Position numbers and translations under genes: made by a program
The notes under the pieces: model-generated
What the model was told of the DNA's origin: nothing
Database searches by the model: none
Seen by the model: only the letters and a program-made list of their open reading frames with translations
Part shown: one piece after another, positions 6,435 to 43,966 of the stretch
How positions within the stretch are numbered: the first letter of the stretch is position 1
Layout: every line of letters starts with the position of its first letter
DNA from: Pirellulales bacterium
Lineage (GTDB): Bacteria > Planctomycetota > Planctomycetia > Pirellulales > JADZDJ01
Length of the DNA stretch: 64,000 nucleotides
NCBI GenBank assembly: GCA_963719205.1
Contig: CAVRAW010000005.1
Span: 280,958 to 344,957 of the forward strand
Reading direction: 5' to 3'

Positions 6435-6519
6435 ATCGACGTAGCCGAGGTCCAGTGGCAGAATAACTCGCATGGCTAGAGTTTTGCAGCGTTTCCGGTG
6501 TCTTCAAGAGCGCCCGGAA

Positions 6520-6987
6520 ATGCAAATGATTTCGAACATCCGCATCCGGTGCTACAGCTGCGAGTCGGACATCTTCCCGTTCCTGGAGCTGCGGCATTCG
6601 GCTTTTGCACGCCAGCGAGTCGGAGTGCGCAAATGGAGCTGTGAAGACTTCCACTCCGAGTTCGCCGGCTCCTGGTGGTGGCGTCCGGATCACATGTGGT
6701 TGGCCGAAACGCTCGACGTGGCGTCAGCAGATTCGCAGCAGCACCCGCTTGTTGGTTCGGTCACGCTTGCAATGCGCGGCCAGCCCGGCGATGCTCGACC
6801 GGTCATCCATTGGCTGATGGTGCTCCCAACCTACCGGCGTCGCGGAATCGGACGCTTGCTGATCGCTCACTTGGAGCGAGCCGCCTGGGACGCCGGCCAT
6901 CGCACAATCTGGCTGGAAACCCACGCCGACTGGGAAGCCGCCGCAAAGTTCTACGATTCGCTCGGATACCACCCCGAACATCATTGA
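6520..6987 (+). CDS. GNAT family N-acetyltransferase
   Basis: Acetyl-CoA binding motif VLPTYRRRGIGRLLI followed by WLETHADWEAAAKFYDSLGY. ATG at 6520 (MQMISN). Confidence 0.8.
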   Translation: MQMISNIRIRCYSCESDIFPFLELRHSAFARQRVGVRKWSCEDFHSEFAGSWWWRPDHMWLAETLDVASADSQQHPLVGSVTLAMRGQPGDARPVIHWLMVLPTYRRRGIGRLLIAHLERAAWDAGHRTIWLETHADWEAAAKFYDSLGYHPEHH

Positions 6988-7691
6988 ATTGCCGCGCGCC
7001 GCTCGTCGAATTCTGCCTTCTGCCTTCTGCTTTCTGCCTTTTGCACCATTCGCAACCGCCCCTCTTCCATCCGCACTTTCCCCAATCCAATCAACCGCAG
7101 TGCTTCCGGATACGCTTCGCACTCGGCCTCAAACACGCGCGCGGCCAAAGTGCCCGGCGTGTCATCATCGAGCACCGCCACCCTCCGCTGCAAGATAATT
7201 GGCCCATGATCGTACTGGTCATCCACTAAATGCACCGTGCAACCGCTGATTCGCGCCCCCGATTCTAGCACCGCTTCATGCACCCGCGCACCAAACAATC
7301 CCCGCCCGCAATACCCGGGCAACAGCGCCGGATGAATGTTCGTCACGCGGTTGCGAAAATCCGCCGGAATCAATACATGTTTGAGAAAGCCCGCCATCGC
7401 TACCAAATGCACACCCGCTTCGCGGCACCTCCCAAACACCGCCTCGCTATATTGTTCCGCGGAGACATCGTCGCTCGGCGCCTCCACAAGCGCCGCAATG
7501 CCAGCCTGCCGCGCAATTTCCAACCCCGGCGCCTTGGATGTGCTGGAAACCACCAATTCAATTCGTGCATCCAGCCGTCCCGCGCAAATGCATTGAATCA
7601 AATTCCCCAGTGTCCTCCCCTTGCCGGAAATTAAAACCGCCAATCGCAAGGGGGAAACAGCCTGTCCGAGTGTGAAGGACATGCCAGTCAT
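6981..7691 (-). CDS. purN: phosphoribosylglycinamide formyltransferase
   Basis: [27 protein letters not shown] and [17 protein letters not shown]. The start ATG overlaps the ileS stop (ATGA). The last ~20 codons are encoded by a TTCTGCC heptamer array. Confidence 0.9.
7011..7045. repeat. heptamer array TTCTGCC x4-5 at the convergent GNAT/purN 3' ends
   Basis: ttctgcc ttctgcc ttctgct ttctgcc ttttgca. It encodes the purN tail [11 protein letters not shown] on the minus strand. Confidence 0.75.
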
Positions 7692-10600
7692 TTCTTCACA
7701 ATCCGCAAATACAGTTGCGAAACGTCGTCGCCGACTTTGATTTCGCTCGCCTCGGCCCCCTCAATCGGCCCCGCTCTTAGAACAGTCGCCAGCGTTTCGC
7801 CGCGAATGTAATCGCCGAAATGGTCGATCGCGCGGCGAATCTCCGCCGACTCGCTTCCGATCCCCACCTCAATGCGGTCCGTATATTCACAATCCCGGTC
7901 TTTGCGGCAATTCTGAATCGCATGCACAATTTCCCGAGCCACTCCCTCGGTCACCAACTCCGGAGACAACTCCGTTGCCAAAACCACCACGCAGTCCTTG
8001 CCCTGCGCCGCCGCCCAGCCCGGCTTGGCCTGCAGGCGCACCTGCAAATCATTGCGGTCCAGCATTTCGCTGCTGCCGTCGTCCAACTTTAGCGAAACGC
8101 TCCCCGCTTTTTCCATTTCCGCAAGCAGCTTGCCGGCGTCCGACTTCGCCAATGCATTTTTCACCAGCGGCAACTTCTTGCCCAGCCGCGGTCCAAGCCG
8201 TTTCAAATCCGGCAGTACGGTATAAGTGATGTACTGCTCCGCCTTTTGCGTGAACTCCACATGTTTGACATTTAGCTCTTTACGCAACAGGTCGAAATGA
8301 TCCTCCAGCCATGCTTGTTGGCTTCGATCCGCCAGAATCACCTCCACCTTCCCCAGCGGCTGCCGCACCTTGAGCTTTGCCCCCATCCGTGCCGCCAGGC
8401 CCAGCGACGCAATCTCGCGCACCAGGTTCATCTGAATCGAAAGCTGCTCATCGATCGCTGCCCGATCCCCCGTGGGAAAATCGCACAGATGAACGCTTGT
8501 AGCGCTCATGGCTTCACCGCCTGCTGCTTGCTGCCTGCCGCCTGCCAGATTTTGCCACATCGCCTCCGCAATGAACGGCACAAACGGCGCAATGATTTTG
8601 CACGTCGTGATCAAACACTCGTACAGCGTCCAATAAGCGTCCAACTTGTCCGGATCGCGCTTGTCTTCCGCCCAAAACCGATCCCGGCTGCGCCGCACGT
8701 ACCAGTTCGAAAGCGCATCGACAAACTCGATGATCCGCTGCGCCGCCGCATAGTTGTCGTAAGCATCCATCCGCTCCACGACCGCCGCCGCCGTGCGATT
8801 CAATTCGCTCAAGATCCAGCGATCCAACTCCGCCCGCTCTTTGATTGGTCGAGCCGATTCGTCCCCCTGATTCTTGACTCCTGATCCCTGACTCCTGGGA
8901 TCAAATCCATCGATATTCGCGTAGATCACAAAAAAGCTGTACACATGCCACAGCCTTAACAAGAATTCCGGAATGCTGTCGCGGATCGCCCGCTCGCTAT
9001 AGCGGATCGTGGTCCACGGCGGCTGCGTGGCAAAAAAGTACCACCGCAACGCATCGGCGCCGTACTTGTCAAAAATCTCCGCAGGCTCGCGGTAATTCCG
9101 CTTGCTCTTCGCCATCTTCTGCCCGTCTTCGCCCAGCATCAGCCCCAGCACAATGCAATTGCGAAACGGCCGCGGAATCGGCTTGTCGAACACCAGCGTC
9201 GAAATCGCCAACTGGCTGTAAAACCACCCGCGCGTCTGATCGAGCGCCTCGCTAATGAAGTCGGCAGGAAACTGCTCATGAAATTTCCCGGCAGCGGCCG
9301 CGCGGCTGCCTTCCGTCGTTCCGCCTTCCGCCTTCCCCCTTCCGCCTTCCCCTTGATATCCCCACTGTGCAAACGGCATCGCCCCGCTGTCGTACCAACA
9401 GTCGATCACATCCGGCACGCGCCGCATCGTGCCGCCGCACTCGCACGAAAACAGGACAGCGTCGATATACGGCTTGTGAACTCTCAAATCGTCGATAAGC
9501 TTCGGATTTGCCTTCTTCGCCTTCTCCCACACTTCCGTTCCTGCAATTCCTGGCTTCCTAATTAATTCTTCGTAATTGCTGATTGCCGACTGCTGATTGC
9601 ACTTCTCGCATTGCCAGATGGGAAGCGGCGTGCCCCAAAATCGCTCCCGCGAAAGCGCCCAATCGACATTTGTCTCCAGAAAATTCCCGAACCGCCCTTC
9701 CTTGATATGGTCCGGCAGCCAGTTGATATGCCGATTATTCTCCAGCATCTGTTCCTTAAACTGGCTGGTTTTGATGAACCAGCTCCGTCGCGGATACTGA
9801 ATCAGCGGATCCTCCTCCGCCCGCCAGCAAAACGGATACTCGTGCCGATATTCTTCGCGATGAAACAACAACCCGCGCTGTTTCAAATCATGAATAATGT
9901 CCTTATCGCATTCCTTCACCCATCGCCCGCGGCAATACTCCGGCCCTTCATCTGTGAATTTGCCGTCCGGCGCTACGGAGCAAATCAGTTCCAAACCCGG
10001 GCCGTCTTCAAATCGACTGCGTTCATGGATCAGCACATCGAAATCGACTTCGCCAAACGCCGGCGCTTGATGCACTACCCCCGTGCCACTATCAATGGTG
10101 ACAAATCCGGCGCTGACCACGCGCCAAGCAATGTACTCCTTGCCATCGCCTTTTAATTGTCCCTGTGCGGACCCCAGCGAACGATAGTAATTGTCAAACG
10201 GCGGCACATACCGCAGCCCGATCAGTTTCTGTCCTTGAATCTTTTTCTCAACCTTGAATTCCCGCTTCACTTTCCCCGCGATCGCCTCCACTAGCGCGCT
10301 TGCAACAACTAACTTTTCCGTCGCGCCCGTCGCGTCGTTGTCGTCCACAACAACTGAATACTCCAACTCCGGATGCACCGCCGCAAACTGATTGCTCGGC
10401 AGCGTCCACGGCGTCGTCGTCCACACCAACAAACTCGCGCCGTCCAAACCCAATTCCTTTGTGCGCGCATCTGACACCAACGGAAACTTCACATACACGC
10501 TCGGGTCCGCCACCTCCCGGTAACCCAACCCCACCTCGCCGCTCGAAAGCGCCGTCCCCCCTGCGCCCACCACCAAACAATCTTGTGCCCCTGATACAAC

Positions 10601-11112
10601 AGCCCCCGATCGAACAACTGCTTCAAGCTCCACCACACGCTCTCCACGTAGCTCTGGTGGTAGGTGACGTACGCCTCGTCCAAATTCACCCAAAACCCGA
10701 TCCGCTCCGTCATCCGCCGCCACTCTTGCATGTACCGCCACACGCTCTGTTGGCACTTCTGAATAAACGGCTCCACGCCGTACTGCTCGATATCCTCCTT
10801 CGAGTGGATTCCCAGCTCTTTGCAGACCTCCACCTCGACCGGCAGACCGTGGGTGTCCCATCCCGCTTTGCGTTCGCACAACTGTCCGCGCATCGTCCGG
10901 TAACGGGGGAAAAGGTCCTTGATCGCCCGGGTCAAACAGTGCCCGGGATGGGGCATCCCGTTGGCCGTCGGCGGACCCTCGTAAAACACAAATCGCTCGG
11001 CGTTTTTCCGCCTTTCAAGCGACTTTGCATACACCTTTTGATCGCCCCAAAAACGGAGGATTCCCTCTTCGAGTTTTGGGAAGTTGACGTTGCTCTCGAC
11101 CGGCTCAAACAT
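7688..11112 (-). CDS. ileS: isoleucine--tRNA ligase, frame broken in a C6 homopolymer at 10556-10561
   Basis: N-terminal fragment 10489..11112 carries the HIGH-type motif [11 protein letters not shown]. Fragment 7688..10879 continues at ..[16 protein letters not shown].. and carries [18 protein letters not shown] and KMAKSKRN (KMSKS). The fragments join as [11 protein letters not shown]|TALSSGEV if the G/C run is 7 rather than 6. Confidence 0.95.
8864..8898. repeat. heptamer array (YTCCTGA x5) inside ileS
   Basis: cccctga ttcttga ctcctga tccctga ctcctgg. It translates on the minus strand as ..[13 protein letters not shown].. in a variable region of IleS. Confidence 0.7.
9308..9349. repeat. 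heptamer array (CGCCTTC x6) inside ileS
   Basis: gccttcc gtcgttc cgccttc cgccttc ccccttc cgccttc. It translates on the minus strand as ..[16 protein letters not shown].., inserted between PFAQWGY and [10 protein letters not shown]. Confidence 0.7.
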
Positions 11113-11487: not shown

Positions 11488-14249
11488 ATGTATCCAGTCA
11501 AAAAGCAACCTAGTATTAGCATCGCTGATCAAGGCACCCTCTTGAAGTTTCTACAGGCGCACGCAACTGCATTTCTGCGGCTAATTGTATGCCTGGCGGC
11601 GCCGGCAGCATCCGTCGCCCTCTGCACTCGTTCGGCGCTGGCTGATTACGAAGTCCCCAATCCCGCTTACGATGCGCCCGCCGGTTATTACAATTCGGCC
11701 ACCGGCACGGGAACCACGCTGCGCGGCAATCTGCATACCATCATTTCCAGCGGCTTCAACACCTACAACTATGGCGATGCCCGCACCATCCTGCCGATTC
11801 TCTGGGAAGATCCCAACGACTCCTCGAGAATGATCCTGGTTTACAACAACCAGTCGATCGTCAAACCCAACCCCAGTGGGACCAACCCGGCGGGCCTCCC
11901 GGGTTGGGACGGTGGCACCACTTGGAACCGCGAACACCTCTGGCCTCAGTCGCTGTTGGGGGTCTCGGTTTCAAACTCCTACAAAGGCCCGGCCAGCGAT
12001 CTCTTTGAACTGGCCCCCTGTAACCCCTCGGTCAACAGCTCCCGCGGGAATAATGACTACGGCACGACCGACGCCAGTGGCACGTACTTCAACCACGGCA
12101 CCAATCCGCATCCCTTCTACTTTTTCCCCGGCGATGCACAAAAGGGCGATGTCGCCCGCTCCATCTTTTACATGGCCACGCGCTACTACGGTGGCACCGG
12201 CATCCAGAACTTGAGCGTCCTCGACGGGTTTCCCAACGATACCATGGTCAACACTTACTCGATCGGCGATCGCCAGTCCCTGCTGCGATGGAATTACGCC
12301 GACGGCGTCGATAATTTTGAACGTCGAAAAAACGACCTGATCTACGACGACTATCAGCACAACCGCAATCCTTACATCGACCATCCCGAGTATGTTTGGG
12401 CCATCTTCGGCGATAGCGACAACAACTCACAAATTTCCGTCGCCACGCCCGCCGCCGACGGCTCGTCTTCCACCACGGCAAATCTCGGCAACGTGATCGT
12501 CGGCACTGCCTTCGGCACCGCCAATGTTACCGTCAGCAAGTCGGGTCACACGCCAACCACCTTCGACATTACAACTTCAGGAAACGCCGTCACCACGGGC
12601 AGTGGTTTGCTTGCAGGCACCGGGCACCCGTTCAATTACGACAGTCAATCGAAGGGCATGACCGTCGGCTGGACCGGTTCAACAGCCACTGCCGGTGCGA
12701 AATCCGGGACGATCACCATCGACAACACCGACCTGACTACCGCCGGTACCGGCCAAGGCTCCGCCGACGGCAACGACACGGTGACCGTCACCGGCAACGT
12801 CTACGATCACGCCAACGCCAGCTTTACCAGTCCCAGCGATACCAATTCCACGACGGTCGATGTGGGCATCTACAAAACCGGCACGGAACGCAATCCGCCG
12901 GCTTTGACATCTACAACCTCGTCAATACCGCCAGCTTCACGGCCGGGCTCCAATATGTCAGTCAGTCCGGCAGCGGCGACACCGCCCAGTTGTCTTCCAA
13001 CGTCGCCACCGCTTTCACCAGCGTTTTGGCGGCAGGTAGCAACATCGGGCTGAATGCGAACCTCAGCACCGCATCCATCGGCAGTTTCTCCGCCGCGTAT
13101 ACGCTCACGGTCGGCGACGATGCCAGCATTACCGGCCACACCAACCAGAACGTTACGCTCAATCTTGCCGGCCGCGTGCGCAACAACGGCACTATCTACT
13201 GGACAGCCGCCGGAGATTCCGCTTGGGATCTGAGTCATACGAAAACGAATTGGACCGACTTGTCTTTGAGCGACGTTTATCTCGAGGGCGATACTGTCGT
13301 TTTCAACGACGCTCAGAACCCCTCGGGCAGCCGCTCGGTGACGTTGAACAACTCCGTCACGCCGGCTTCGGTCTCCGTGAATCACAGCACCGGCAGCGAT
13401 TACACCATCAGCGGCTCAGGCGATATCGGCGGAAGCGGAGGGCTTACCAAAGCCGGTAGCGGTAAGTTCACATTGTCTACAAACAACACCTACAGCGGCG
13501 GCACCACGGTGAACGATGGCACGCTGGTGGTCGGTCACGTAAACGCCTTGGGCACCGGCGGCCTGGCGATTAACAGCACCGCCACCACGCAGTTGCAGGC
13601 CGGCTTGAGCGGGCCGGTGCAATTGCCCACCTTGTCGATCGCCGGCGGCTCCAGTCCGACCGCCACATTGGACATCACGGACAACAACATGATCGTCCAC
13701 AACGGCGATCTGTCCGCCTTAACCGCACAGGCCAAGGCCGGGCTCAGCGGCGGTTTCGACTGGAATGGCACTGGCCTCACCAGCACCACGGCACGTGACG
13801 ATTCCAATTTCGCCACCGCCGTGGGTGTGATCCAGAACGACGATGGCGGTGGCGGCGCCTTCTACAGCAGCTGGCCCGCCGGGGCCGATTCCGGTGGCGC
13901 CGTAAGCGTCAGCCAAACCGACGTCCTGATCAAGTACACCTACTACGGCGATGCCGACTTGGACGGCGTGGTGACCTCCGGTCAGGACTACGACTTGTGG
14001 CTGTTCGGCAAGAGCGGCGGCGGTACGGGCTGGGAATTCGGCGACTTCGACTACGACGGATCGATTACCGGCGCCAACGACTACGACCTCTGGCTGTACG
14101 GCAAGTCGGTCAGCGCCGGCAACCCGTTGGGCGGTGGCGGCGGCGTGCAGCCGGTCCCCGAGCCCAGCACGTTGCTCTTGGCCGCACTGGGTCTGGCCGG
14201 AGTGGCGGCCTTTGCCCGTCGGCGGCGGGCCGAAACGGCGCCGATTTAG
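11488..14249 (+). CDS. secreted endonuclease I-family nuclease fused to autotransporter-associated beta-strand (PATR) repeats, dockerin-like repeats and a PEP-CTERM anchor; frame broken near 12897
   Basis: Signal peptide. Endonuclease I motifs WNREHLWPQS, SDLFELAPCNPSVNSSRGNNDYG and GDVARSIFYMATRY. PATR-like GSGGLTKAGSGKFTLSTNNTYSGGTTVNDGTLVV. Two DxDxDG repeats (GDADLDGVVT.., GDFDYDGSIT..). C-terminal VPEPSTLLLAALGLAGVAAFARRRR. ORFs 11488..13053 and 12990..14249 join as ..GTERN(P)|AGFDIYNLVNTASF. Confidence 0.8.
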
Positions 14250-20643: not shown

Positions 20644-21274
20644 TCACTTGATCAACTGTTTCTCGATCAAGCCAAACAACTCCCAGGCCACCTGCTCCTT
20701 CGCGCCGGCGATCGTCGCAATTGCCTCGCCGGTCCGATCCAGCACCTCCACGTTGTTCTCCGCCGAGCCGATCGCCTGCGGGCCATTGAGAACCATCAGA
20801 TCGCAACTCTTCTTTTGCATCTTCGTAATGGCGCGGAATCGCTGGTCCTCTGTTTCCAGTGCAAACCCCACGACCCATTGATCCGGCCGTTTGCCCGAAG
20901 CCAGCGTGGCCACGATGTCCGGCGTTTCCACCAGATGCAGCACCAGCGGCTCCCCCGTCTTCTTGATTTTCTGCTCTTCCACTCGAACTGGGCGATAATC
21001 ACTTGGCGCCGCAATGCCGATCAGCCCGTCGCATTCCGGGAATAGCTTCTGGCAAGTGGCGAGCATTTCTTCAGTCGATACCACAGCCACGACACGACAG
21101 ACTCTCGGATACGAAACTTCCACAGGGCCTGAAACAATCGTGACTTGATGCCCCGCATCCACTGCCGCTTGCGCAATCGCCTGACCCATCCGCCCGCTGG
21201 ACGCATTGGTCAAATACGCGCACCGGATCGAGATGCTGCCGCGTGGGTCCCGATGTAATCAGAATGCGCGCCAT
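20644..21274 (-). CDS. coaB: phosphopantothenate--cysteine ligase, frame broken near 21216
   Basis: MARILITSGPTRQHLDPVR (ORF 21071..21274) continues in ORF 20644..21213 as YLTNASSGRMGQAIAQAA.. once one extra base is removed. The rest matches the CoaB domain of Dfp. Confidence 0.85.
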
Positions 21275-21302
21275 CGTTTAGCCCCGGGCTCGGCCCGGGG
21301 GT
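21272..21302. repeat. GC hairpin element family A, copy 2, spanning the coaC stop and coaB start
   Basis: CATCGTTTAGCCCCGGGCTCGGCCCGGGGGT. On the minus strand it reads ..CCCCCGGGCCGAGCCCGGGGCTAAACGATGG, supplying the last 6 sense codons and the TAA stop of coaC and the ATG of coaB. Confidence 0.8.
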
Positions 21303-21856
21303 GAAGTCGCCTGCGCCAACTCCGCCTCGATTGCCGCGCGAATCCTTTCCGGTTCCGCCATCCGCCCCACCCCCACGTCGCGGCAGCTCAGCCAGCCCTC
21401 TTCCGGATCGACGATGGCCACTCCATCGGCGCGCAATTGCTCGACGTTGCGCTGCACCGCCGGTTGCGACCACATCTCGGCGTTCATCGCCGGCGCAACG
21501 ATTACCGGCCCGCGAAACGCTAAATACAGCGTGCTTAGCAAATCGTCGGCCATGCCGGTGGCCGCTTTCGCCAAGAAGTTGGCCGTCGCCGGCGCGATGC
21601 ACAGCACATCCGCCTGCCGCGCCAGTTCGATATGTGCCCCCAGCGGAAAATTTGGATCGCCGAATATCCCGCGTGGCAGCGGCCGCCCCGTCAGCGCTTC
21701 GAAGGTCGTGGGCCCGACAAATTCCTTGGCCGCTTCCGTCAAGATCGCCGTCACCCCGGCGCCGTCTTGCACCAAGCGGCTCACCAGCGCCGCGGTCTTA
21801 TAAGCCGCGATCCCGCCCGTCACGCCGATGACTATTTCGCGGCCCTTCATGACCAT
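21278..21856 (-). CDS. coaC: phosphopantothenoylcysteine decarboxylase (flavoprotein)
   Basis: IVIGVTGGIAAYK, APATANFLAK and PAMNAEMW. The stop TAA (21278-21280) lies inside a GC hairpin element and is 3 nt from the coaB ATG. Confidence 0.88.
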   Translation of the reverse strand: MVMKGREIVIGVTGGIAAYKTAALVSRLVQDGAGVTAILTEAAKEFVGPTTFEALTGRPLPRGIFGDPNFPLGAHIELARQADVLCIAPATANFLAKAATGMADDLLSTLYLAFRGPVIVAPAMNAEMWSQPAVQRNVEQLRADGVAIVDPEEGWLSCRDVGVGRMAEPERIRAAIEAELAQATSPPGRARG

Positions 21857-21860
21857 GTGG

Positions 21861-21955
21861 AAATTAGGATTTCTGATTTAGGAATTAGGACAGAAATCTC
21901 GGATCGCCATCCTTTCAAATCCTACATCCTAAATTCTAATTCACAGATTCTTACA
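21861..21955. repeat. phased heptanucleotide array in the rpoZ/coaC intergenic region
   Basis: gatttct gatttag gaattag gacagaa ... aaatcct acatcct aaattct aattcac agattct, all with a 7-nt period. Confidence 0.65.
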
Positions 21956-25114: not shown

Positions 25115-25211
25115 CAAACTTGCCAAGAGAGTCACCAGAATAAGAAACTCACGCACAGGCGCAAAGGCGTAAAGAAGTCGATTTTGCCCGCTGCCCGCAG
25201 CCGGCCGCCGG

Positions 25212-26332
25212 CTACTCCGCCGCCGCCGCCTTGGCATAAGAGCCCAGAATATTCAGCCGCACCGCCCGCCGCGCCAGCGCCTCCGTCGCCCGCACCACTT
25301 TCTTGTCCTGCTGATGTCCTTCCATTTCGACGAAGAACAAATAGCCCCCCTCAGGCCGCGCAATCGGGAACGATTCAATCCAAGTCAGATTCAACTTATT
25401 GCGCTTGAATATATTCAGCGCCTCAGCCAGCGACCCCGGCTTGTGCACGACCTCGAACATCAGCGCCGTCTTGTCGCGCCCCGTGCGCGGACCCGAATGC
25501 TGCCCAATCACGGCAAACCGCGTCAGGTTCCCCTGCTGATCCTCAATGTTCTCCGCCAAAACGCTCAGCCCGTGATGCGTCGCCGCCTGCACGCTGGCGA
25601 TCGCCGCCGCCCCTGGCTTCTCCTTCGCCAACTGCGCCGCCGTCGAAGTGCTGGTCACCTCGATCGTCCGCGCCTGCGGCAAATGTCGCGTCAACCAGTT
25701 GCGACATTGCGACAATGCCTGCGGCCGACTGTAAACTTCCTGCACTTCACTCCGCTGGCACTGCCCCAACAAGCAATGATGAATCGGCAAATTCACCTCG
25801 GCACAAATCTGCACCGGCAGCCGCGTGAACATGTCCAGCGTGTCCGCAATTCGCCCATCCGTGCTATTCTCGATCGGCACCAGCCCATAGTCGCAGTGCC
25901 CGCGATTCACTTCCTCGAACACCGCCCCGATGCTCGCCACCGGCACATATTCCACCGTCTGGCCAAACCGCTGAATGGCCGCCAAATGACTATAGGTATA
26001 CGCCGGCCCGAGATGGGCGATGCGAAGCATCTTTTCCAAAGCCCGCGAGCCGCTGATGATCTCCCGAAACGCCGCCTGCAAACATTGGTTCGACAGCGGC
26101 CCATGATTGTGCCCCGTCACCCGCCCCAGCACTTCATCCTCGCGCACCGGATCGTACGCCCGCTGACCATTCTGCTCTTTTACCTTCCCAATCTGGTGCG
26201 CGAGCTTCGCCCGCTCATTCATCCGCGAAACCAACTCCCGGTCGATCTTGTCTATCTTCGGCGCAGCCCCGCCACGGTCGGAGTTCGAGCAGACGTTTTG
26301 GAGGCCGCCTTCGGCGGCTTACGTTTGGCCAT
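25212..26332 (-). CDS. pheA: bifunctional chorismate mutase/prephenate dehydratase, frame broken near 26260
   Basis: The prephenate dehydratase core carries LGPAYTYSH, ENSTDG and LTRFAVIG, followed by an ACT domain. The chorismate mutase helix 1 (..LRPKIDKIDRELVSRMNERAKLA) is complete only if the ATG at 26332 (MAKRKPPKAASK..) is joined across a missing C near 26260. Confidence 0.88.
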
Positions 26333-32266: not shown

Positions 32267-33154
32267 ATGCAGGACGTAGAAAAATACGCGCCGCCGACAG
32301 AGACTCTGGGCGATCAAGTGCATGCAGTCGCACGTGCCGCACTAGGCGCAATACCGTATGCGGGAAACGCGGCTTGTGAGCTGCTCCAAAAGATCGTCGC
32401 GCCGCCGATCAAAATACGAATTAACGACTGGATGGAAAACATAGCCGACGGTCTCAAGAGACTTGAAAACGAGCAACGGTGTAAAATCGAAGACCTTGGC
32501 AAAAACGATGCGTTTACGGACACGATTATGTATGCAACGCAGGCGGCCGTGCGCACATCCAAAGACGGAAAGCGAAAGGCCCTCCAAAATGCAGTGTTAA
32601 ACTCTGCCCTGCCAAATCCACCGGACGAGACCTCGAGACAAATGTTCTTGTCATTGGTAGACACCTTCTCCGAATTGCACTTGCGTTTCCTCGCAATTTT
32701 TCAGGACCCGCCAAGCTGGCTTGCGGCAAACAACAAACCCATTCCTACTAGAGAATCAAGGACGCTGTGGGAGCTTGTGTCATACATATTTCCAGAATTG
32801 AAGGATCAGCGAGCAATAGCCGAACAAGTCTGCAAGGAATTGCATAACCGTGGATTATTGATCGCTGCGTCTTTGAACGAGGAAGTTTCTCGCTACCCTT
32901 ACTTTCCAACTAAACCAATCGAGCAGCAACCCGGATACTACTTCGCAGAAACCCCTGGAATTGGAAATGTCGTTTATTCCGGAAGTCATTCCGCTTTAAG
33001 ACCGTGGACAACCGAACTGGGGAACCAGTTTTTAGCGTTTATATCATCGCCAACCGAACAGCAGCCAGTCACCCTTGCTTCTCGCGCCGGGTGCCATACC
33101 CACGCTCTAGCGTGGGCATGTGACGTCGTCCTGGCTTCCTGCTTTCCTAATTGA
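32267..33154 (+). CDS. hypothetical protein (295 aa), no family recognised
   Basis: Clean ORF in the low-GC islet, 28 nt after the previous gene. Helical N-terminal half (..KRKALQNAVLNSALPNPPDETSRQMFLSLVDTFSELHLRFL..). The last ~12 codons are encoded by a palindromic repeat element. Confidence 0.55.
   Translation: MQDVEKYAPPTETLGDQVHAVARAALGAIPYAGNAACELLQKIVAPPIKIRINDWMENIADGLKRLENEQRCKIEDLGKNDAFTDTIMYATQAAVRTSKDGKRKALQNAVLNSALPNPPDETSRQMFLSLVDTFSELHLRFLAIFQDPPSWLAANNKPIPTRESRTLWELVSYIFPELKDQRAIAEQVCKELHNRGLLIAASLNEEVSRYPYFPTKPIEQQPGYYFAETPGIGNVVYSGSHSALRPWTTELGNQFLAFISSPTEQQPVTLASRAGCHTHALAWACDVVLASCFPN
33094..33119. repeat. palindromic repeat element family B, copy 2
   Basis: CATACCCACGC-TCTA-GCGTGGGCATG, an 11-bp stem with one mismatch, forming the 3' end of ORF 32267..33154. 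Confidence 0.75.
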
Positions 33155-33579
33155 ATCTCGGCTTCTCCGCGCCTCCATGTCTCTGCGGTTCACAATGTTT
33201 TCTGCGTCAAGCCCCGAATTGGCCACCTAGAAATTGGGCCAGCGCCTGTCCTAAACAACACCCAGACGATGCGGCCATCGATATCAGCCAAAGTAGCAGG
33301 ACCGACATAGGAAGTCGCGTCAATGGCGTGCCGACATCGGGAAACCTTTCGCCGCCTGAGGCCGGAGGCAATTCCTCCGGTACACTGAAAGTTCGCTTTC
33401 AGTGCTTTGCCGTGCCACGGGGTTATCGTGCGCGGAACAACAACTCGAGGCGGTCACCATCAGGTACTAACCCAGGGGCTCGTCCGCCAATGTGGCGCGT
33501 CGGGCAGGCAAGCAGCGTGAGCGTGGACTCCGTTCCCGTCACAAGCTTGTCGGCGACGGCTGTTGCAAGTGTAGAAACT

Positions 33580-33615
33580 CCTCTCCCTTTAAGGGAGAGG
33601 CCGGGAGAGGGTAAC
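33580..33615. repeat. hairpin repeat element family D, copy 2
   Basis: CCTCTCCCT-TTA-AGGGAGAGG (9-bp stem) followed by CCGGGAGAGGGTAAC. Confidence 0.7.
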
Positions 33616-33792
33616 GCCTCGCGCGCTATCCGTCTTCCATGCAACCTACGCCCCGTCGCATTTTGAATTCGGCCGGCCCCAACCCTACCGAATGGCCCGA
33701 CCCGCCACGGCGGACGAGCGCCAAATTTTTTTATTGCGACTTTTTGTGCTTTTCGTGGCAATCGCCGCCAATGCCCCTCCGCGCACACATCT

Positions 33793-33876
33793 AACTTGAA
33801 ACATGCAACTTGAAACCTGAAACCCCTTCCGCCTTCCTACTTCCTACATCCTAATTCCTACTTCCGACTTCCACGC
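33793..33876. repeat. phased heptanucleotide tandem array (12 units)
   Basis: aacttga aacatgc aacttga aacctga aacccct tccgcct tcctact tcctaca tcctaat tcctact tccgact tccacgc. Strict 7-nt phase over 84 nt, ending 17 nt before the ATG at 33894. Confidence 0.8.
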
Positions 33877-33893
33877 ATGACCTAAACTTGTCC

Positions 33894-34400
33894 ATGCCCC
33901 TGCACACCCTCGTACTGACCTTCCACATCACCTGCGGCGTCATCGCCCTGACGCTCGGCCTGATCGCCATGGCCGCCGAAAAATCCCGCGGCCTGCACAC
34001 CTTCGTCGGCAACGCCTACCACTGGGTCTACGTCGCCCTGGCAACTTCCGCCTGCGGCGTGGCATCCTTCGATTGGCCGCGGTTGTGGTGGTACGTCCCC
34101 ATCGCGTTGGGATCCTACTCGCTGGCGCTCATGGGCTTCCTCGCCGCCAAAATCCGCTGGAACAATTGGCTCCAGTCGCACCTCTCCGGCCAACTCGGAT
34201 CGTACATCGCCATGACCACCGCGGTGCTGGTCGTGAACTTCGGCAGCGTCTGGTGGGCCTGGATCACTCCCACGATCATCGGCTCGCCGCTAATCGCCTG
34301 GCTCAAGCGCGAAGTCCGCGCCGGCCACCGCCCCAAATACAAATCCACAATCGAGAACACGCTCGCCACGTCCTCGCGAGAATTGCAGCCCGTCAATTAG
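33894..34400 (+). CDS. hypothetical integral membrane protein (4-5 TM)
   Basis: ATG at 33894. Hydrophobic helices LVLTFHITCGVIALTLGLIAMAA, WVYVALATSACGVASF, YVPIALGSYSLALMGFLAA, LGSYIAMTTAVLVVNF and WAWITPTIIGSPLIAWL. Confidence 0.6.
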   Translation: MPLHTLVLTFHITCGVIALTLGLIAMAAEKSRGLHTFVGNAYHWVYVALATSACGVASFDWPRLWWYVPIALGSYSLALMGFLAAKIRWNNWLQSHLSGQLGSYIAMTTAVLVVNFGSVWWAWITPTIIGSPLIAWLKREVRAGHRPKYKSTIENTLATSSRELQPVN

Positions 34401-34574
34401 CCCGCCTGCCCGTCGTTCTGTCGTGGTACGAATCGCCGCCGCTCCGTGTCTCTGTGCCTCCGTGGTTAAGTGCGAGCGCAAAAAAATAGCCCCCGACGAT
34501 TTCTCGCCGAGGGCTAAACAACATCCGTGTAATTCCTCTGCCTGTCCTGAGCAGTCAGATTCAGGTAATTGCGA

Positions 34575-35714
34575 TCAGTCGCGGCCGCGCCGCCCACTGG
34601 CCAGCCGGCCGAGGCCTTTCACATCCAGCGTGCCGGTGATGGTCGTGTCCACGCTAATCGCGCTGCCGGCGGTCGGCGTGACCGACACATTCGTCAGCAC
34701 CGCATGGCCGTTGCCATTAACATCGGTATCGATCGTCCCGACCACCGTGCCGTCGATCGCCACGTCGAGCGTGCTACCTGCCGCCGCGCCGCGCACGTTC
34801 ACGATCAACTTGCTATCGACCGAGCCGTCGCTAAGCGTCCGGCTCAAGAAGATCGCCGTGCCGGTCGCGCCGCTGGCCGAGTCGCTCAGCCGCGAGCGCA
34901 AATGCAACACCGATGTCACCTCGGGGGCAAGCGCAAACGTGCCGGTGGCATCGCCAACGGCAATCGTGCTGCCTTCATTCACGGTGATCGCCGCATCCTT
35001 GAGCACGAGCGACCCGTTGCCGTTGGCATCGGTGCTGATCGTGCCGACAGTGTTGCCGTCGATCATCACAGCGATATCGGTGCTGGCGGCCGTGCCGTTG
35101 ATTGTCACCACCAAGTTCGATTCGGTGTTGCCGTCCTCGGTTTCACTCTTGAACGAAGCCGTGCCGGTCACCGCGCCGGTGGTGTCGGTCAACTGGGTCG
35201 TCAGCTTCACTTCATTTTCATCACCTTCATCATGGCCGGCGGTGCGCACTGCCAAATCGCCAGTGGCAGTGCCCACGGCCACGGTGTCGCCGGCTGCGGG
35301 AGTAACGGCCAAGCTGCCTTTGAGCGCAATTGCGCCCGATCCGCTATCGTCGGTCATGATGGTGCCGACGGCCGTGCCGTTAATATCCACTTCGTAGGGC
35401 GTGTTGGCCGCGGCGCCTTTGATGTTGGCGGTCAACACCGAGGTGGTTGTGCCGTTGTGAGTAATGCTGGTGAACGACACGTGGCCGGTCACGTTGGCAT
35501 CGTTCGGATCGCTGAGCGTGGCGCTCAAAAACGTTCCTTGAATGCTGGCCGAGCCGGCAAGGCGCGACGACGCCAGCACCGCAATATTCGACGTGTCATG
35601 ATGCGAAGCCGCGATGCTCAAACCGGCGGTCACACCAGCGGCGACCGAGCAACCCGACAACATACTGCGCGACTCAAGCTGTTCGAATGCGCGCACAGGC
35701 GAAGAACGTAACAT
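34575..35714 (-). CDS. secreted protein with three ~95-aa tandem domain repeats
   Basis: N-terminal FEQLESRSMLS motif, common at the start of planctomycetal exoproteins. Three repeats follow the pattern L..L.D....TG.A.F.S........L...I.GAAA.T..V.I.G..VGTI.TD..G.G...L.....T...G..I.V...TG. The opposite-strand ORFs look like GC shadows. Confidence 0.65.
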   Translation of the reverse strand: MLRSSPVRAFEQLESRSMLSGCSVAAGVTAGLSIAASHHDTSNIAVLASSRLAGSASIQGTFLSATLSDPNDANVTGHVSFTSITHNGTTTSVLTANIKGAAANTPYEVDINGTAVGTIMTDDSGSGAIALKGSLAVTPAAGDTVAVGTATGDLAVRTAGHDEGDENEVKLTTQLTDTTGAVTGTASFKSETEDGNTESNLVVTINGTAASTDIAVMIDGNTVGTISTDANGNGSLVLKDAAITVNEGSTIAVGDATGTFALAPEVTSVLHLRSRLSDSASGATGTAIFLSRTLSDGSVDSKLIVNVRGAAAGSTLDVAIDGTVVGTIDTDVNGNGHAVLTNVSVTPTAGSAISVDTTITGTLDVKGLGRLASGRRGRD

Positions 35715-36066
35715 GGGGATCCTCCTCTGTTCACAAAGTTCCGTTGACCGCTGGCCACTTTCTGTGGGTTCCGAGTGCTCTGTTCACCCGGCGAGTGGCG
35801 CTGGATCGGCCTTGCCTCTGGCACATTCCCTATAGCAAACCGCACGTCACTTGTGGAAGTTGCCGCGGAATTTTTTCCGAGAAAAGATTCCGTGCATGTG
35901 CAATGACCAGCGGCGTGGTCAAGATAGATAAGCCGCGAGATTTGCAGATAAAGAATATCGCAGAAAAGCTAGTTCTTCCGAGGCATGCCAACGGCATGTG
36001 GAAATGCGCCGCGAGATATTTGATCGCCCGCGCCCTGAACCGCAGCCTGCCAGGCTGAGCGCCAAA

Positions 36067-36261
36067 TTAACGCTTGCGCTCGTCCAAGCCAAGAGTGGAG
36101 ATGATCGTTTCCGCGCCAGGCGTCATGCGGCGAAGCTTATCGGCGATGTTCGCCTTTTCCGAAACGGTGGCTTTCTTCAGCTTCCGCTGAAAGACGACCA
36201 GCTTCTTGCGCCGCCGGCGGCGCCGCTTGATTTCCTGCTTCCGATCGCTGATGCCACCCAC
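36067..36261 (-). CDS. small highly basic hypothetical protein (64 aa)
   Basis: GTG at 36261 gives MGGISDRKQEIKRRRRRRKKLVVFQRKLKKATVSEKANIADKLRRMTPGAETIISTLGLDERKR. Lys/Arg-rich, like ribosome- or nucleic-acid-associated small proteins. Confidence 0.5.
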   Translation of the reverse strand: MGGISDRKQEIKRRRRRRKKLVVFQRKLKKATVSEKANIADKLRRMTPGAETIISTLGLDERKR

Positions 36262-36333
36262 GTGTAGGCTCCTGGGGTCAAAGTGATCTGCTTTTGTAAC
36301 ACGACCGCCATGAAACGTCAACGCATAACGAGG

Positions 36334-36424
36334 AATGACCGATGACCAGTTGCCAATGACCCGCGACAGATTGACCGTTGCCGCCTGTTGGTCACTGGGT
36401 TTTGTTCATTGGTCATTCTGATTA
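36334..36424. repeat. inverted pair of heptamer arrays (AATGACC-type)
   Basis: Left arm: aatgacc gatgacc agttgcc aatgacc. Right arm: ggtcact gggtttt gttcatt ggtcatt, which is the reverse complement of aatgacc aatgaac aaaaccc agtgacc. Confidence 0.65.
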
Positions 36425-36479
36425 GCCCCGAACATTTGACACTTTCCGCTGCTCAAAGCTACAGTTGCGCTATCTTGCC

Positions 36480-36516
36480 GGACGGGTGGCCGAGCGGTTT
36501 AAGGCACCGGTCTTGA
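36480..36516 (+). tRNA. truncated tRNA-Ser(UGA) 5' half (acceptor stem to anticodon), copy 1; not a functional tRNA
   Basis: GGACGGGTGGCCGAGCGGTTTAAGGCACCGGTCTTGA matches the class II tRNA-Ser 5' half (acceptor GGACGGG, D-arm GCC-GAGCGGTTTAA-GGC, anticodon stem CCGGT, loop CTTGA..). The sequence after the anticodon is unrelated: no ACCGG return strand, no T-arm, no CCCGTCC. Confidence 0.75.
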
Positions 36517-36649
36517 TGGCCGAAGCGGCCTGCCCACTGCCGTTCGGAGTCGGATGCGCGATCCGCTTCGGTGGTCGTTGGACTGCGCTAAGGCCCAAGC
36601 GAGCTACAACGCGTCAAATCGCTCGACCAACGATTTATTGGTCCTGGAA

Positions 36650-39010
36650 ATGGAAAATTCCTCTACTTCTACTACGCCACGACAGTCGGGATTTCGCGTG
36701 GTTGCCGCAGGCGCGTTGCTTGCTTTGGCAACCATCGTGGTCTATTTCCCGTCCATGCACGGCGGATTTCTGTTCGACGATGATCAGTTGCTGACGAACA
36801 ACCCACTGATCAAGGCCCCGAACGGCCTCTTTCGTTGTTGGTATACAACCCATCAGTTGGACTATCTGCCCCTTACCATTTCGACGCTGTGGCTGGAATG
36901 GCGACTATGGGGGATGGATCCCACCGGCTATCGTGTTACCAATTTGCTGTTGCATATCGCGGCATGCTTTCTGATTTGGACAGTGTTGCGACGACTATCG
37001 ATTCCCGGCGGATTCCTCGCAGCACTTCTATTTGCAGTTCACCCGGTCAATGTCGAAAGCGTTGCTTGGATTGAGCAACGCAAGAGCACGCTTTCGCTGG
37101 TGCTCTTCTTGCTGTCCATTCTATGGTACCCGATCGACGAGCCGGATCGCGAAACCAGGAAACATGCGTCGGCGTTGGGCGTCGGGCGATGGTACTGGCT
37201 TAGCCTGATGGCGTTCACCCTGGCGATGTTCAGCAAGGGCTCCGCTGCTATTTTGCCGTTCGTATTGCTTTTGATCGTGTGGTGGCGGCGCGACAGGATC
37301 ACGAAACCCGATGTGCTGCGCAGTGCCCCGTTTTTTTTGGTGGCCGCGGTCTTCACGCCGATCATCATTTGGTTTGTTGCGCACGGCGCGACGACGACGA
37401 TTCGCGAACTGACGTTTGGCCAGCGTGCGGCCTGCAGTGGAACGGTCGTGTGGTTCTACCTGTGCAAGGCATTGATTCCAATCCGCCTGTTGTTTGTCTA
37501 TCCGCAATGGCAAATTGACGCTGACAATCTGCTGTGGTGTTTGCCGTTGTTGGCGTCGTTCGTCATCACGGCGGAGTTGATCGGGCGGCAAAATCACAGG
37601 TGGATTCGGCCGATCTTGTTTGCTTGGGCGTCGTACTGTATCGGGCTCAGGCCGGTGCTGGGGTTCACCGATCCAGGCTATATGAGCGTAGCGGCGGTGG
37701 CCGACCATTACCAATACATTTCTTTAATCAGCATCACCGCACTGGCGGGCGCCGCTTGGTACAGGTGGCACCAACATGCTCGGAATATGATCCTTACGAT
37801 GACCGCCGCCACGACGGCAGTGGGCATACTTATGTTTTTGACGTGGCAACAAAGCCAGCTATATGCGGATCCGATTGTGCTGTATGAAGCCACCTTGGAG
37901 CACAATCCCGATTGTTATTTCATCCATAACAATTTGGGCGCAGAGCTCGCAAAGTCCGGCCGCTCGCAAAACGCAATCGGACATTTCCAAAAGGCGATTC
38001 GGTTAAAGCCGGATTACGCCCTGGCACACTTCAATTTGGGGGAAACGCTGCTCGCGTCAGGTCGAGCAGAAGGTGCGATCGAACATTATCGACAGGCGGT
38101 CCGCTTCCAGCCCGATTTTACCTTGGCGTATCATAATTTGGGCAATGCGTTGCGCGATACCGGCCACATCCAAGAGGCAATCGAGTCTTATGAGCGTGCG
38201 ATAGCGCTTGCACCGGCGTTCGCGACCGCTCACTTCAATCTTGGAATTGCCTTGATGCAGGAGCATCAAATCGACAAAGCGATCGAGCAATTCCGACTAG
38301 GCTTGCATTTTGATCCCGACAATGCTGCAGCGCACCACCAGCTTGGCAATGCTCTGCGTGCCGCACACCAACCGCAAGAGGCGGTTGATGAGTACCTGGC
38401 GGCACTGCGATTGAAGCCGGATGATGCCGAAGCGCAAGCAAGTCTGGAAATGCTGTTGTCCGGCCGAAGCCCTGCTGAAGAACCGCTGCATAACGTAGGC
38501 CACTTGACACCGGAGGATCGAAACGCCGTTGCCGCACAATTCAATCTGGGAATTGCCCAGCTTCACGCCGGACATCCAGAAAAGGCTCTGGAGTTCTTTG
38601 AGCGCGCTTTGTCCACGAAGTCCGATATTCCCGAGGTGCAATCGGCGATGGGCGCCGCGCTGGTCATAATGGGCCGATCCCAGCCGGCGCTGGAGCACTT
38701 GCAAATCGCATTGCGACTACGGCCCGATGACGCCGATGCTCAAAATAACCTGGCGTCCGCATTAGGCGCTCTGGGTCGCACATCGGAAGCGGTGGAACAT
38801 TGTCGAGAAGCGGTCCGCCTCCGACCAGCTTTTATCGAACCCTGGAACAATCTGGTAATTTTCTACGATCAATTACGCCAGCCTGAAAAAGCTGTCGCTG
38901 CTGCTGAGAAAGTGTTGGACCTGGCACGCTCTCAGGGAAAAACTGCTTTGGCTGAGCAAATGGAGGACTGGCTGGCTGCGCACCGCGGCGCCATCGAAAT
39001 AGCTCGTTAA
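36650..39010 (+). CDS. TMTC/PMT-like GT-C membrane glycosyltransferase with C-terminal TPR array (intact)
   Basis: ATG at 36650 (MENSSTST). Multi-TM N-terminal half with a first-loop FLFDDDQLL motif, WLEWRLWGMDPTGYR, AVHPVNVESVAWIEQRKS and ADHYQYISLIS. About 11 TPR units follow (AIGHFQKAIRLKPDYALAHFNLG etc). Confidence 0.85.
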   Translation: MENSSTSTTPRQSGFRVVAAGALLALATIVVYFPSMHGGFLFDDDQLLTNNPLIKAPNGLFRCWYTTHQLDYLPLTISTLWLEWRLWGMDPTGYRVTNLLLHIAACFLIWTVLRRLSIPGGFLAALLFAVHPVNVESVAWIEQRKSTLSLVLFLLSILWYPIDEPDRETRKHASALGVGRWYWLSLMAFTLAMFSKGSAAILPFVLLLIVWWRRDRITKPDVLRSAPFFLVAAVFTPIIIWFVAHGATTTIRELTFGQRAACSGTVVWFYLCKALIPIRLLFVYPQWQIDADNLLWCLPLLASFVITAELIGRQNHRWIRPILFAWASYCIGLRPVLGFTDPGYMSVAAVADHYQYISLISITALAGAAWYRWHQHARNMILTMTAATTAVGILMFLTWQQSQLYADPIVLYEATLEHNPDCYFIHNNLGAELAKSGRSQNAIGHFQKAIRLKPDYALAHFNLGETLLASGRAEGAIEHYRQAVRFQPDFTLAYHNLGNALRDTGHIQEAIESYERAIALAPAFATAHFNLGIALMQEHQIDKAIEQFRLGLHFDPDNAAAHHQLGNALRAAHQPQEAVDEYLAALRLKPDDAEAQASLEMLLSGRSPAEEPLHNVGHLTPEDRNAVAAQFNLGIAQLHAGHPEKALEFFERALSTKSDIPEVQSAMGAALVIMGRSQPALEHLQIALRLRPDDADAQNNLASALGALGRTSEAVEHCREAVRLRPAFIEPWNNLVIFYDQLRQPEKAVAAAEKVLDLARSQGKTALAEQMEDWLAAHRGAIEIAR

Positions 39011-41985: not shown

Positions 41986-42006
41986 AGCAGATTGCAGTTC
42001 AGTAGG

Positions 42007-43895: not shown

Positions 43896-43966
43896 TATCT
43901 GCGCTCATGGACGGGTCTGCAAGCTAGGATAAACAGCTAACATGGACTAAATAGGCATACTATTCC

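Follow-up and report, generated by a model that had tools for sequence, protein, structure and literature searches.

Tandem arrays of seven-nucleotide (7-nt) units are embedded in frame in two housekeeping genes of a Pirellulales bacterium, namely ileS, which encodes isoleucyl-tRNA synthetase (IleRS), and purN, which encodes phosphoribosylglycinamide formyltransferase. Both genes are located in a 64,000-nt stretch of the genome (assembly GCA_963719205.1, contig CAVRAW010000005.1, positions 280,958 to 344,957 of the forward strand), which is referred to here as the window. The arrays are probably products of in-situ slippage, a mutational habit that runs through the Pirellulales lineage and whose results are filtered by selection to tolerant protein loops. 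In ileS, they are lineage-specific segments that occupy loops in which insertions and deletions (indels) are tolerated. The array in purN is best seen as a stop-codon-proximal array of the intergenic type, whose stop-free unit extended the open reading frame (ORF).

Four arrays are coding, and all of them are read on the minus strand. Tandem Repeats Finder (TRF) places three of them in ileS: site A at 9308-9354 (plus-strand unit GCCTTCC, sense unit GGAAGGC; 6.7 copies, 83% matches, one indel), the degenerate 7/14-nt array of site B at 8866-8897 (CCTGACT, sense CAGGAGT/CAGGGAT; 4.6 copies, 72% matches), which scores better as a 14-mer repeated 2.3 times, and site C at 8519-8545 (GCCTGCT, sense GGCAGCA/GGCAGGC; 3.9 copies, 85% matches), which encodes GGRQQAAGG. 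The fourth is the purN-tail array at 7011-7044 (TTCTGCC, sense GGCAGAA; 4.9 copies, 88% matches). An initial annotation made from the sequence alone had described heptamer arrays in frame at two places in ileS and in the tail of purN, and both TRF and the ORFs agree with it. The peptides that it quoted for the arrays are correct, with that of site A lying between PFAQWGY and FPADFI, and its three coding arrays are all real, while the fourth in-frame array, at 8519-8545 in ileS, had been missed. Each coding array contains at least three head-to-tail copies of its unit (3.9-6.7 by TRF). The longest perfectly periodic tracts of the arrays starting at 7011, 8519, 8866 and 9308 measure 20, 14, 12 and 18 nt, or 2.9, 2.0, 1.7 and 2.6 units, so that only the first and the last come near three copies when perfect copies are required. 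All of the sense-strand units are free of stop codons in all three frames.

Six further period-7 arrays are found in the window, starting at 21862, 21917, 25185, 33793, 33833 and 37166. The ten arrays use at least eight different units according to TRF, and half of the window's arrays are coding. A loose GGCAGCA-like family of units is common to three of them, with no match to published heptamer units, and an RNA-family search of the whole window gave no match, which leaves the arrays in no described RNA family. A period scan with a score threshold of at least 10 detected six period-7 arrays in the window, where shuffles that preserve dinucleotides gave 0.1, and periods 4-6 and 8-11 yielded no array. 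The periodicity is therefore real and specific, and period 7 is the only non-triplet period that is enriched in the window.

The ileS gene (7688-11112, minus strand) encodes a type-2 enzyme, whose identity is supported by 594 relatives and by matches to IleRS structures in the PDB at E = 1e-75. The assembly splits it into two ORFs (10489-11112 and 7688-10879), and the repaired protein has 1141 residues. The frame shifts at a run of six G at 10556-10561 on the minus strand (six C on the plus strand) through a 1-nt deletion: the window has CAG GGG GG_ ACG where all relatives have CAR GGN GGN ACN, the codons of the invariant WWWAQGGT. Most likely, this deletion is an error of the assembly consensus; were it real, ileS would be a pseudogene or dependent on frameshifting.

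To place the arrays within the protein, the window's IleS was aligned with 80 Pirellulales IleS sequences (81-sequence alignment) and with the 12 closest proteins (13-sequence alignment). By its IleS relatives, the window falls within the Pirellulales (Planctomycetota). The closest sequences are 66-70% identical in the genome collection and 76% identical among 5.8 billion proteins. The arrays lie at about 60%, 73% and 83% along the protein and coincide with length-variable columns of the alignment, in loops whose length varies across 87 relatives. At site A, between PFAQWGY and FPADF, a segment of 24 residues replaces the roughly 7 residues of the Pirellulales consensus (WGY-PHQG..-F..QFPADF), a gain of 17. 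At site C, between WQNLA and SVHL, about 6 residues are gained over the consensus NLA-G-VFGDR-ALESVHL, and at site B, between NIDGFDP and ELDRW, a shorter unrelated segment replaces the conserved linker G.AGQL...LA.A.GYRP. Against the solved type-2 IleRS 8c8v, the array segments are exactly the three gaps of the alignment, with 17, 12 and 13 residues at sites A, B and C, respectively. An AlphaFold model that covers the C-terminal 955 residues of IleS predicts loops at two of these places, as the predicted local distance difference test (pLDDT) score falls below 50 precisely at residues 557-565 (site B) and 674-682 (site C), between confidently modelled helices. Site A lies in a broad region of low confidence (383-527), probably since the model lacks the N-terminal half of the catalytic domain, and only sites B and C are informative in this model. 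A fourth variable loop, D, is present in the window's IleS at AISTLVF^DKPIPRPF.

The purN gene is a 236-residue ORF at 6981-7691 on the minus strand (Pfam PF00551, E = 6e-37), and the order ileS-purN-GNAT is also found in relatives. The convergent gene, at 6472-6987 on the plus strand, encodes a GNAT acetyltransferase (Pfam PF00583). With the purN stop codon at 6981-6983 and the GNAT stop codon at 6985-6987, the two genes overlap by 7 nt (6981-6987). The initial annotation had located the purN array inside this overlap; however, the array begins 24 nt beyond the GNAT stop, and the GNAT gene does not reach it. Nor does the array encode the last 12 or so residues of PurN, as had been proposed: it supplies residues from about -21 to -10, and the final nine (FDERRAAIQ) come from 6984-7010, outside the array. 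Together they form a C-terminal extension of 21 residues (6984-7046, minus strand), which was delimited by an alignment of the C-termini of 53 relatives, a DNA comparison of the 3' ends and Pfam. PurN of relatives ends 2-6 residues after the motif V.GRRVRV, while the window's protein continues for about 20 more, a tail that is missing in about 50 of the 53. The start of the array corresponds to the position of the stop codon in relatives, and the array fills a region that in relatives is a purN-GNAT spacer of 0-149 nt. The array lies beyond the Formyl_trans_N domain, whose last residue is 198 of 236. Aligning IleS and PurN from relatives, a check that had been suggested along with the initial description, thus identifies the segments at sites A, B and C and the PurN tail as lineage-specific.

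The position of the first repeat unit indicates how the ileS arrays began. At site A, the first unit overlaps the conserved codons GGG GAA GGC (G-E-G of QGEG), at site B the conserved GAT CCC (D-P of GFDP) and at site C the conserved GCA GGC (A-G of NLAG), where conserved means present in relatives that do not have the array. This overlap argues for tandem duplication of resident sequence and not for foreign insertion. Within the window, no further copies of the array units were found beyond the arrays themselves, and none of the four coding arrays has an inverted partner. Their predicted RNA folding is no better than that of shuffled sequence (z = +0.8 to +1.7). The strongest argument for an in-situ origin comes from site C. 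A GGCAGCA-type array encoding GG.QQAAG is present at this site in the window and in three relatives (P0002, P0004 and P0009), and the site C arrays of the window and the close locus L082 have 24 nt in common with one mismatch. In a neighbour-joining tree, the window and these three relatives do not group as a clade in any of 200 bootstraps, while the sister of the window, P0001 (116 of 200 bootstraps), keeps the ancestral AAFG at site C. The site C array therefore grew independently from a common seed. Common descent of the array in the window and L082 was considered and rejected on the same grounds, as the carriers are no clade and the sister of the window is without the array. P0001 also has no array at site B or at the end of PurN, and its site A array is built of another unit, so that all four window arrays post-date the split from this sister, yet they are already matched at only 72-88%.

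Arrays of this kind recur among relatives. A survey of 80 loci, complemented with six loci of the closest clade and the window itself, covered 87 loci and 1.04 Mb of Pirellulales DNA. Arrays with 7- or 8-nt units were detected inside ileS in 15 of the 87 loci, mostly at loops A-D and with differing units. At a threshold of at least 2.8 copies, 55 arrays of period 7 and 27 of period 8 were counted, compared to 1, 1, 2, 3 and 2 at periods 4, 5, 10, 11 and 13. The ileS gene makes up 29% of the surveyed DNA and contains 35 of 81 period-7/8 arrays (43%). Of the 99 inserts in IleS that are lineage-specific and 30 nt or longer, nine have period-7 and five have period-8 structure, against a shuffle expectation of 0.04, and none has a period of 4, 5, 10, 11 or 13. 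Consistent with this, identity at a lag of 7 nt is 0.293 in insert DNA and about 0.26 at neighbouring lags, while it is not raised in core DNA (0.249). Site A carries an array in seven of seven close genomes, with differing units: GGAAGGC in the window, GGCAGCA in L083 and L082, GTC(A/G)AAAA with period 8 in L084 and L081, GAGGAGC in L085 and AGTGCGG/ACTCCGC in L086. Since all seven carry arrays of different units, the comparison of these sequences points to a rapid turnover at a permissive site.

The following sequence of events is proposed. Replication slippage would tandemly duplicate resident words of 7 bases, or of 8 bases in some genomes. Arrays would arise in this way throughout the genome, and few of those inside genes would survive selection. 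The survivors would be arrays that are free of stops in three frames, that insert or substitute only complete codons and that lie where the protein tolerates changes in length, namely the four surface loops and linkers of IleS and the stop-codon region and 3' spacer of purN. Once fixed, an array would decay by point mutation and lose its potential for slippage, and later arrays may overwrite it. The encoded peptides, rich in Gly, Ala, Gln, Arg, Lys, Glu and Ser, would be passive disordered filler, which is assumed to be selectively neutral. Slippage as the generating step is inferred.

Decay of this kind bears on how fragile the two genes are. A slip of one unit in either direction in any of the ileS arrays would truncate IleS 9-129 codons downstream of the array start, and the same slip in the purN array would change only a dispensable tail. 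The prediction in the initial annotation that slippage would frameshift the host gene is supported for ileS. Lin & Kussell reported that the indel variability of simple sequence repeats (SSRs) rises steeply and non-linearly with the length of the perfect tract (PMC3315296). Because variability depends so steeply on perfect length, degenerate arrays such as these should be close to ordinary sequence in their stability. The genes had also been described as mutationally fragile, which does not fit arrays that are imperfectly matched and have short perfect tracts, one of them in a dispensable tail. Nor is the persistence of the arrays surprising in this phylum, as had been suggested, given that the loops vary in length in every relative and that heptamers are over-represented in Planctomycetes (PMC4060949). 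The interpretation in the initial annotation is thus only partly supported: the inserts are lineage-specific and non-triplet, but they are no serious liability for the genes.

Several observations weigh against in-situ slippage followed by filtering. The support for slippage as the generating step is indirect, consisting of the seeding of arrays in conserved codons and their convergent growth, and the closest IleS compared is 76% identical. Heptamer units within one mismatch of GGCAGCA number 11 of 55, compared to 1.5 expected, and occur across seven genomes, which might mean that they descend from one ancestral element. Convergent seeding plus selection can also explain the excess; GGCAGCA contains no stops on either strand and resembles (CAG)n. 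The enrichment of arrays in ileS is not predicted by a pure process of random birth plus filter, unless IleS is unusually permissive. In addition, two features of the relatives are unexplained by simple slippage. The first consists of inverted array pairs, in which (unit)n is followed, after a spacer of 3-95 nt, by (reverse-complement unit)n. Among 27 pairs of neighbouring arrays of the same period, 10 are inverted in this way, compared to 1.06 expected. They are found inside ileS at sites A and C of L086 and site A of L082, and those of the relatives fold into strong hairpins (z = -3.8 to -8.8). The second is found in the ileS of P0012 (locus L081; JGI metagenome 3300046817; 1499-2640), where four palindromic octamer elements of 70-90 nt occupy the four IleS loops, one per loop and nearly identical. 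Each has the form (GTCGAAAA)n-loop-(TCTTCGAC)n with homologous loops, all are in frame and each encodes KVE.SKSRKDS...SSTLGLLDSST. L081 and the inverted pairs call for a further process, which may be template switching or mobility.

Mobility leads to the strongest of the alternatives, in which small hairpin-forming elements, mobile or copy-pasted, have arms of tandem 7- or 8-mers and enter tolerant protein loops in frame, like the Rickettsia palindromic elements, and the solo arrays of the window are decayed single arms. Besides the inverted pairs, the L081 palindromes and the recurrence of the GGCAGCA family, it can draw on one intergenic inverted pair in the window itself, at 21862-21939, which TRF and pair detection resolve into (AATTAGG)x4.1, a spacer of 27 nt and (AAATCCT)x3.3. 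This pair has the architecture of the inverted pairs of relatives, is capable of forming a hairpin (fold z = -2.5 and -3.0) and lies directly 5' of the start codon of a coaC-like gene on the minus strand (Pfam Flavoprotein). However, the four coding arrays have neither inverted partners nor structure, their first units overlap conserved host codons in ileS, and the window holds no other copies. A metagenome-wide scan for the L081 arm retrieved (GTCGAAAA)n arrays at 55 loci, mostly in unrelated contexts and two with inverted partners, while the L081 loop was present at none of the 55. Since no metagenome locus carries this loop, a dispersed mobile family is not demonstrated. Inverted arms could also come about in the absence of mobility, through quasipalindrome template switching, a known mutational mechanism in bacteria by which one expanded arm would be copied onto the other. 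For the arrays of the window, an origin as decayed arms of mobile elements is thus considered unlikely, and the inverted pairs suggest that template switching accompanies slippage. Upstream of ileS in L085 (4830-4971), nested inverted octamer arrays are also observed, in which three copies of CGCAGAGA are matched by three copies of the exact reverse complement TCTCTGCG and, inside this outer pair, AGGAAACC pairs with TCCTGGCT.

Alternatively, the arrays might be kept by selection, either as flexible linkers that IleS or PurN requires or as GG- or purine-rich mRNA signals that slow ribosomes or form G-quadruplexes (G4). Arrays are indeed commoner in ileS than in the flanking DNA, and all four coding arrays of the window are purine-rich on the sense strand. 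Clusters of GG dimers are moderately over-represented in the coding regions of Planctomycetes (PMC4060949), and the GGGNATC repeats of Xanthomonas and Nostoc form G4 in vitro (PMC4692102). A selected function is nevertheless improbable, as the presence, length, unit and even period of the arrays vary between close relatives at one and the same loop, the inserts are missing in most relatives and in the solved IleRS, the arrays are decaying and the PurN tail is confined to a few relatives, which leaves nothing conserved for selection to act on. Far less credible still are contingency loci, which would use slippage to turn ileS or purN on and off in the manner of phase variation, an extreme version of the fragile genes of the initial annotation. 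In favour of such switching, the units are not divisible into triplets and a slip of one unit would truncate IleS; however, the perfect tracts span only 1.7-2.9 units, the arrays lie in the middle or at the 3' end of genes and not near the 5' end, an OFF state of these housekeeping hosts would be lethal or useless, and SSR variability drops steeply with shorter length (PMC3315296). Given this anatomy, the contingency-locus explanation is effectively refuted. Finally, the consensus quality is imperfect, with no fewer than two essential genes showing an apparent 1-nt indel (ileS at its G run and coaB, see below). It is nevertheless hardly plausible that assembly errors produced the arrays or their copy numbers, since none of the four disrupts the frame of its long conserved host gene, comparable arrays occupy the corresponding loops in 14 relatives assembled independently in different projects, and any read is far longer than a degenerate array of 27-47 nt.

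A broader proposal can be put forward, although only tentatively. Pirellulales may possess a distinctive and highly active generator of insertions, consisting of 7-8-nt slippage together with either hairpin template switching or an unrecognised hairpin-array mobile element. Such a generator might be a major source of new protein segments that repeatedly and convergently colonise the loops of essential enzymes such as IleS, overwrite earlier inserts and sometimes spread one palindromic element across the loops of a single gene. The arrays of the window would then be one snapshot of this activity.

In-situ slippage filtered by selection has consequences for the window and for the clade. The window arrays would be ordinary tolerated filler that indicates neither gene decay nor regulation nor phase variation and, as a caution for annotation, array inserts should not be taken for errors. 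At the level of the clade, the pattern represents a countable case in which a mutational bias of the lineage, the duplication of 7 or 8 nt, feeds insertions into conserved proteins, with protein structure as the filter. The periodic signature is still borne by at least 14% of the larger IleS inserts that are specific to a lineage. Notable features of the clade are the turnover of units, the variation between periods 7 and 8 and the hairpin pairs inside coding DNA. A heptamer excess was first reported in 2007, and these genomes offer natural material for the question of why period 7 is favoured in bacteria, as close relatives here differ in their use of period 7 or 8.

Several other features of the window can be listed. 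The coaB (DFP) part of a coaBC-like locus changes frame at about 21213-21278 on the minus strand through an extra G after GTG CGC, between DPVR and YLTNASSGRMGQ. The neighbouring coaC (21278-21856) ends with a stop codon and an ATG follows 4 nt later. After the ileS G run, the coaB frame change is the second apparent 1-nt indel to affect an essential gene of the 64-kb window. A TGCCCGC array of 4.1 copies (25185-25213; TRF), whose reverse complement GGCAGCG belongs to the GGCAGCA family, lies directly after the stop of a pheA-like gene (25212-26234, minus strand; Pfam PDT and CM_2). It is part of a composite region at 25152-25213, upstream of tpiA and in a terminator-like position, that also includes a period-8 array of CGCAAAGG in 2.9 copies and the GC-rich palindrome GCCGGCGGCCGGC. 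At 33793-33872, TRF detects two adjacent heptamer arrays, (AACCTGA)x4.6 and (CTTCCTA)x5.7, which are spanned by no ORF of at least 90 residues. The nearest plus-strand ORFs are 33151-33666 and 33888-34400, of which only the latter has a weak Pfam match, below the curated cut-off. GC skew changes sign at about 34000-38000, from about -0.1 to -0.27 at 1-36 kb to 0 to +0.14 beyond, and the cumulative skew has an origin-like minimum near 36 kb. In the nearby ORFs 34569-35714 and 40179-45250, the only ones scanned, Pfam found no DnaA or DnaN domains. A tandem repeat with a much longer unit (60858-61916; 408 nt, 2.6 copies, 98% identical) encodes three tandem phosphopantetheine-binding (acyl carrier protein, ACP) domains and follows an ORF with an acyltransferase domain (59232-60584), an arrangement that looks like a synthase of the polyketide or polyunsaturated fatty acid type. 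The ORFs beside the ACP repeat overlap and may be one gene broken by further indels. Similarly, an Endonuclease_1 ORF (11488-13053) overlaps a PATR/PEP-CTERM ORF (12990-14249) in another frame, and the region 11488-14249 may encode one secreted protein split by an indel or two genes.

The window arrays belong to the known heptanucleotide SSRs of prokaryotes; their recurrent in-frame occupancy of synthetase loops was not found described, and a literature search on heptamer repeats in Planctomycetes found nothing. In the category of 7-mers repeated at least three times, Huang & Mrazek (2014) list the highest phylum median for Planctomycetes (category +2.0 compared to 0-1 for others; PMC4060949, Table 2), on which the text of that paper makes no comment. 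As cited in PMC4679880 and PMC4692102, Mrazek, Guo & Shah (2007) identified heptanucleotides as the most abundant class of long SSRs (LSSRs) in most genomes, suggested that they are caused by slippage of the polymerase across the roughly 7 nucleotides that it contacts and expected units that are multiples of a triplet in coding DNA. The window arrays resemble these heptanucleotide LSSRs (7n3) in their tandem 7-nt units of many sequences, and in the over-representation of period 7, with the signal strongest in Planctomycetes (PMC4060949). Slippage, the proposed origin of the LSSRs according to the account in PMC4679880, is likewise proposed for the window arrays. In contrast, the literature consulted treats LSSRs statistically and as mainly intergenic, whereas here non-triplet arrays lie in frame in an essential synthetase, at recurrent loops, and some Pirellulales relatives use period 8 instead.

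Individual families of short, scattered 7-mer arrays of 2-26 units provide a second comparison, including the STRR of cyanobacteria, GGGNATC in Xanthomonas and Nostoc (PMC4692102) and TAACTGA in Beggiatoaceae and cyanobacteria (PMC4679880). Often, such arrays overlap a stop codon or come to within 50 bp of one, as do the purN array and the array at 25185. While these families consist of one or a few fixed units at many loci, at least eight units occur in the window, coding arrays make up half of those present and the host is a planctomycete.

Contingency loci, the slippage-prone SSRs that host-adapted pathogens have in coding DNA, are similar in that non-triplet tandem repeats lie inside ORFs and a change in unit number shifts the frame. 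They comprise long perfect tracts near the 5' end or promoter of dispensable genes, typically surface or restriction-modification genes. The window differs on each point, with at most 2.9 perfect units, positions in the middle or at the 3' end of the gene and housekeeping hosts (ileS and the last 21 codons of purN).

A parallel for the protein side is offered by the selfish Rickettsia palindromic elements (PMC10969869), which also introduce non-conserved, repeat-encoded peptide segments into housekeeping enzymes at sites that the fold tolerates. The in-frame and fold-compatible placement of these elements is likewise found for the window arrays, as seen in the 8c8v gaps and the predicted low-pLDDT loops. 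The hairpin feature is absent from the coding arrays of the window and present in L081, L086 and L082, and the four in-frame copies of L081 are arranged in a way that resembles these elements. Rickettsia palindromic elements are dispersed families of about 100-150 bp with a consensus, whereas the window arrays are 27-47 nt long, non-palindromic, single-copy in the window and seeded by host codons.

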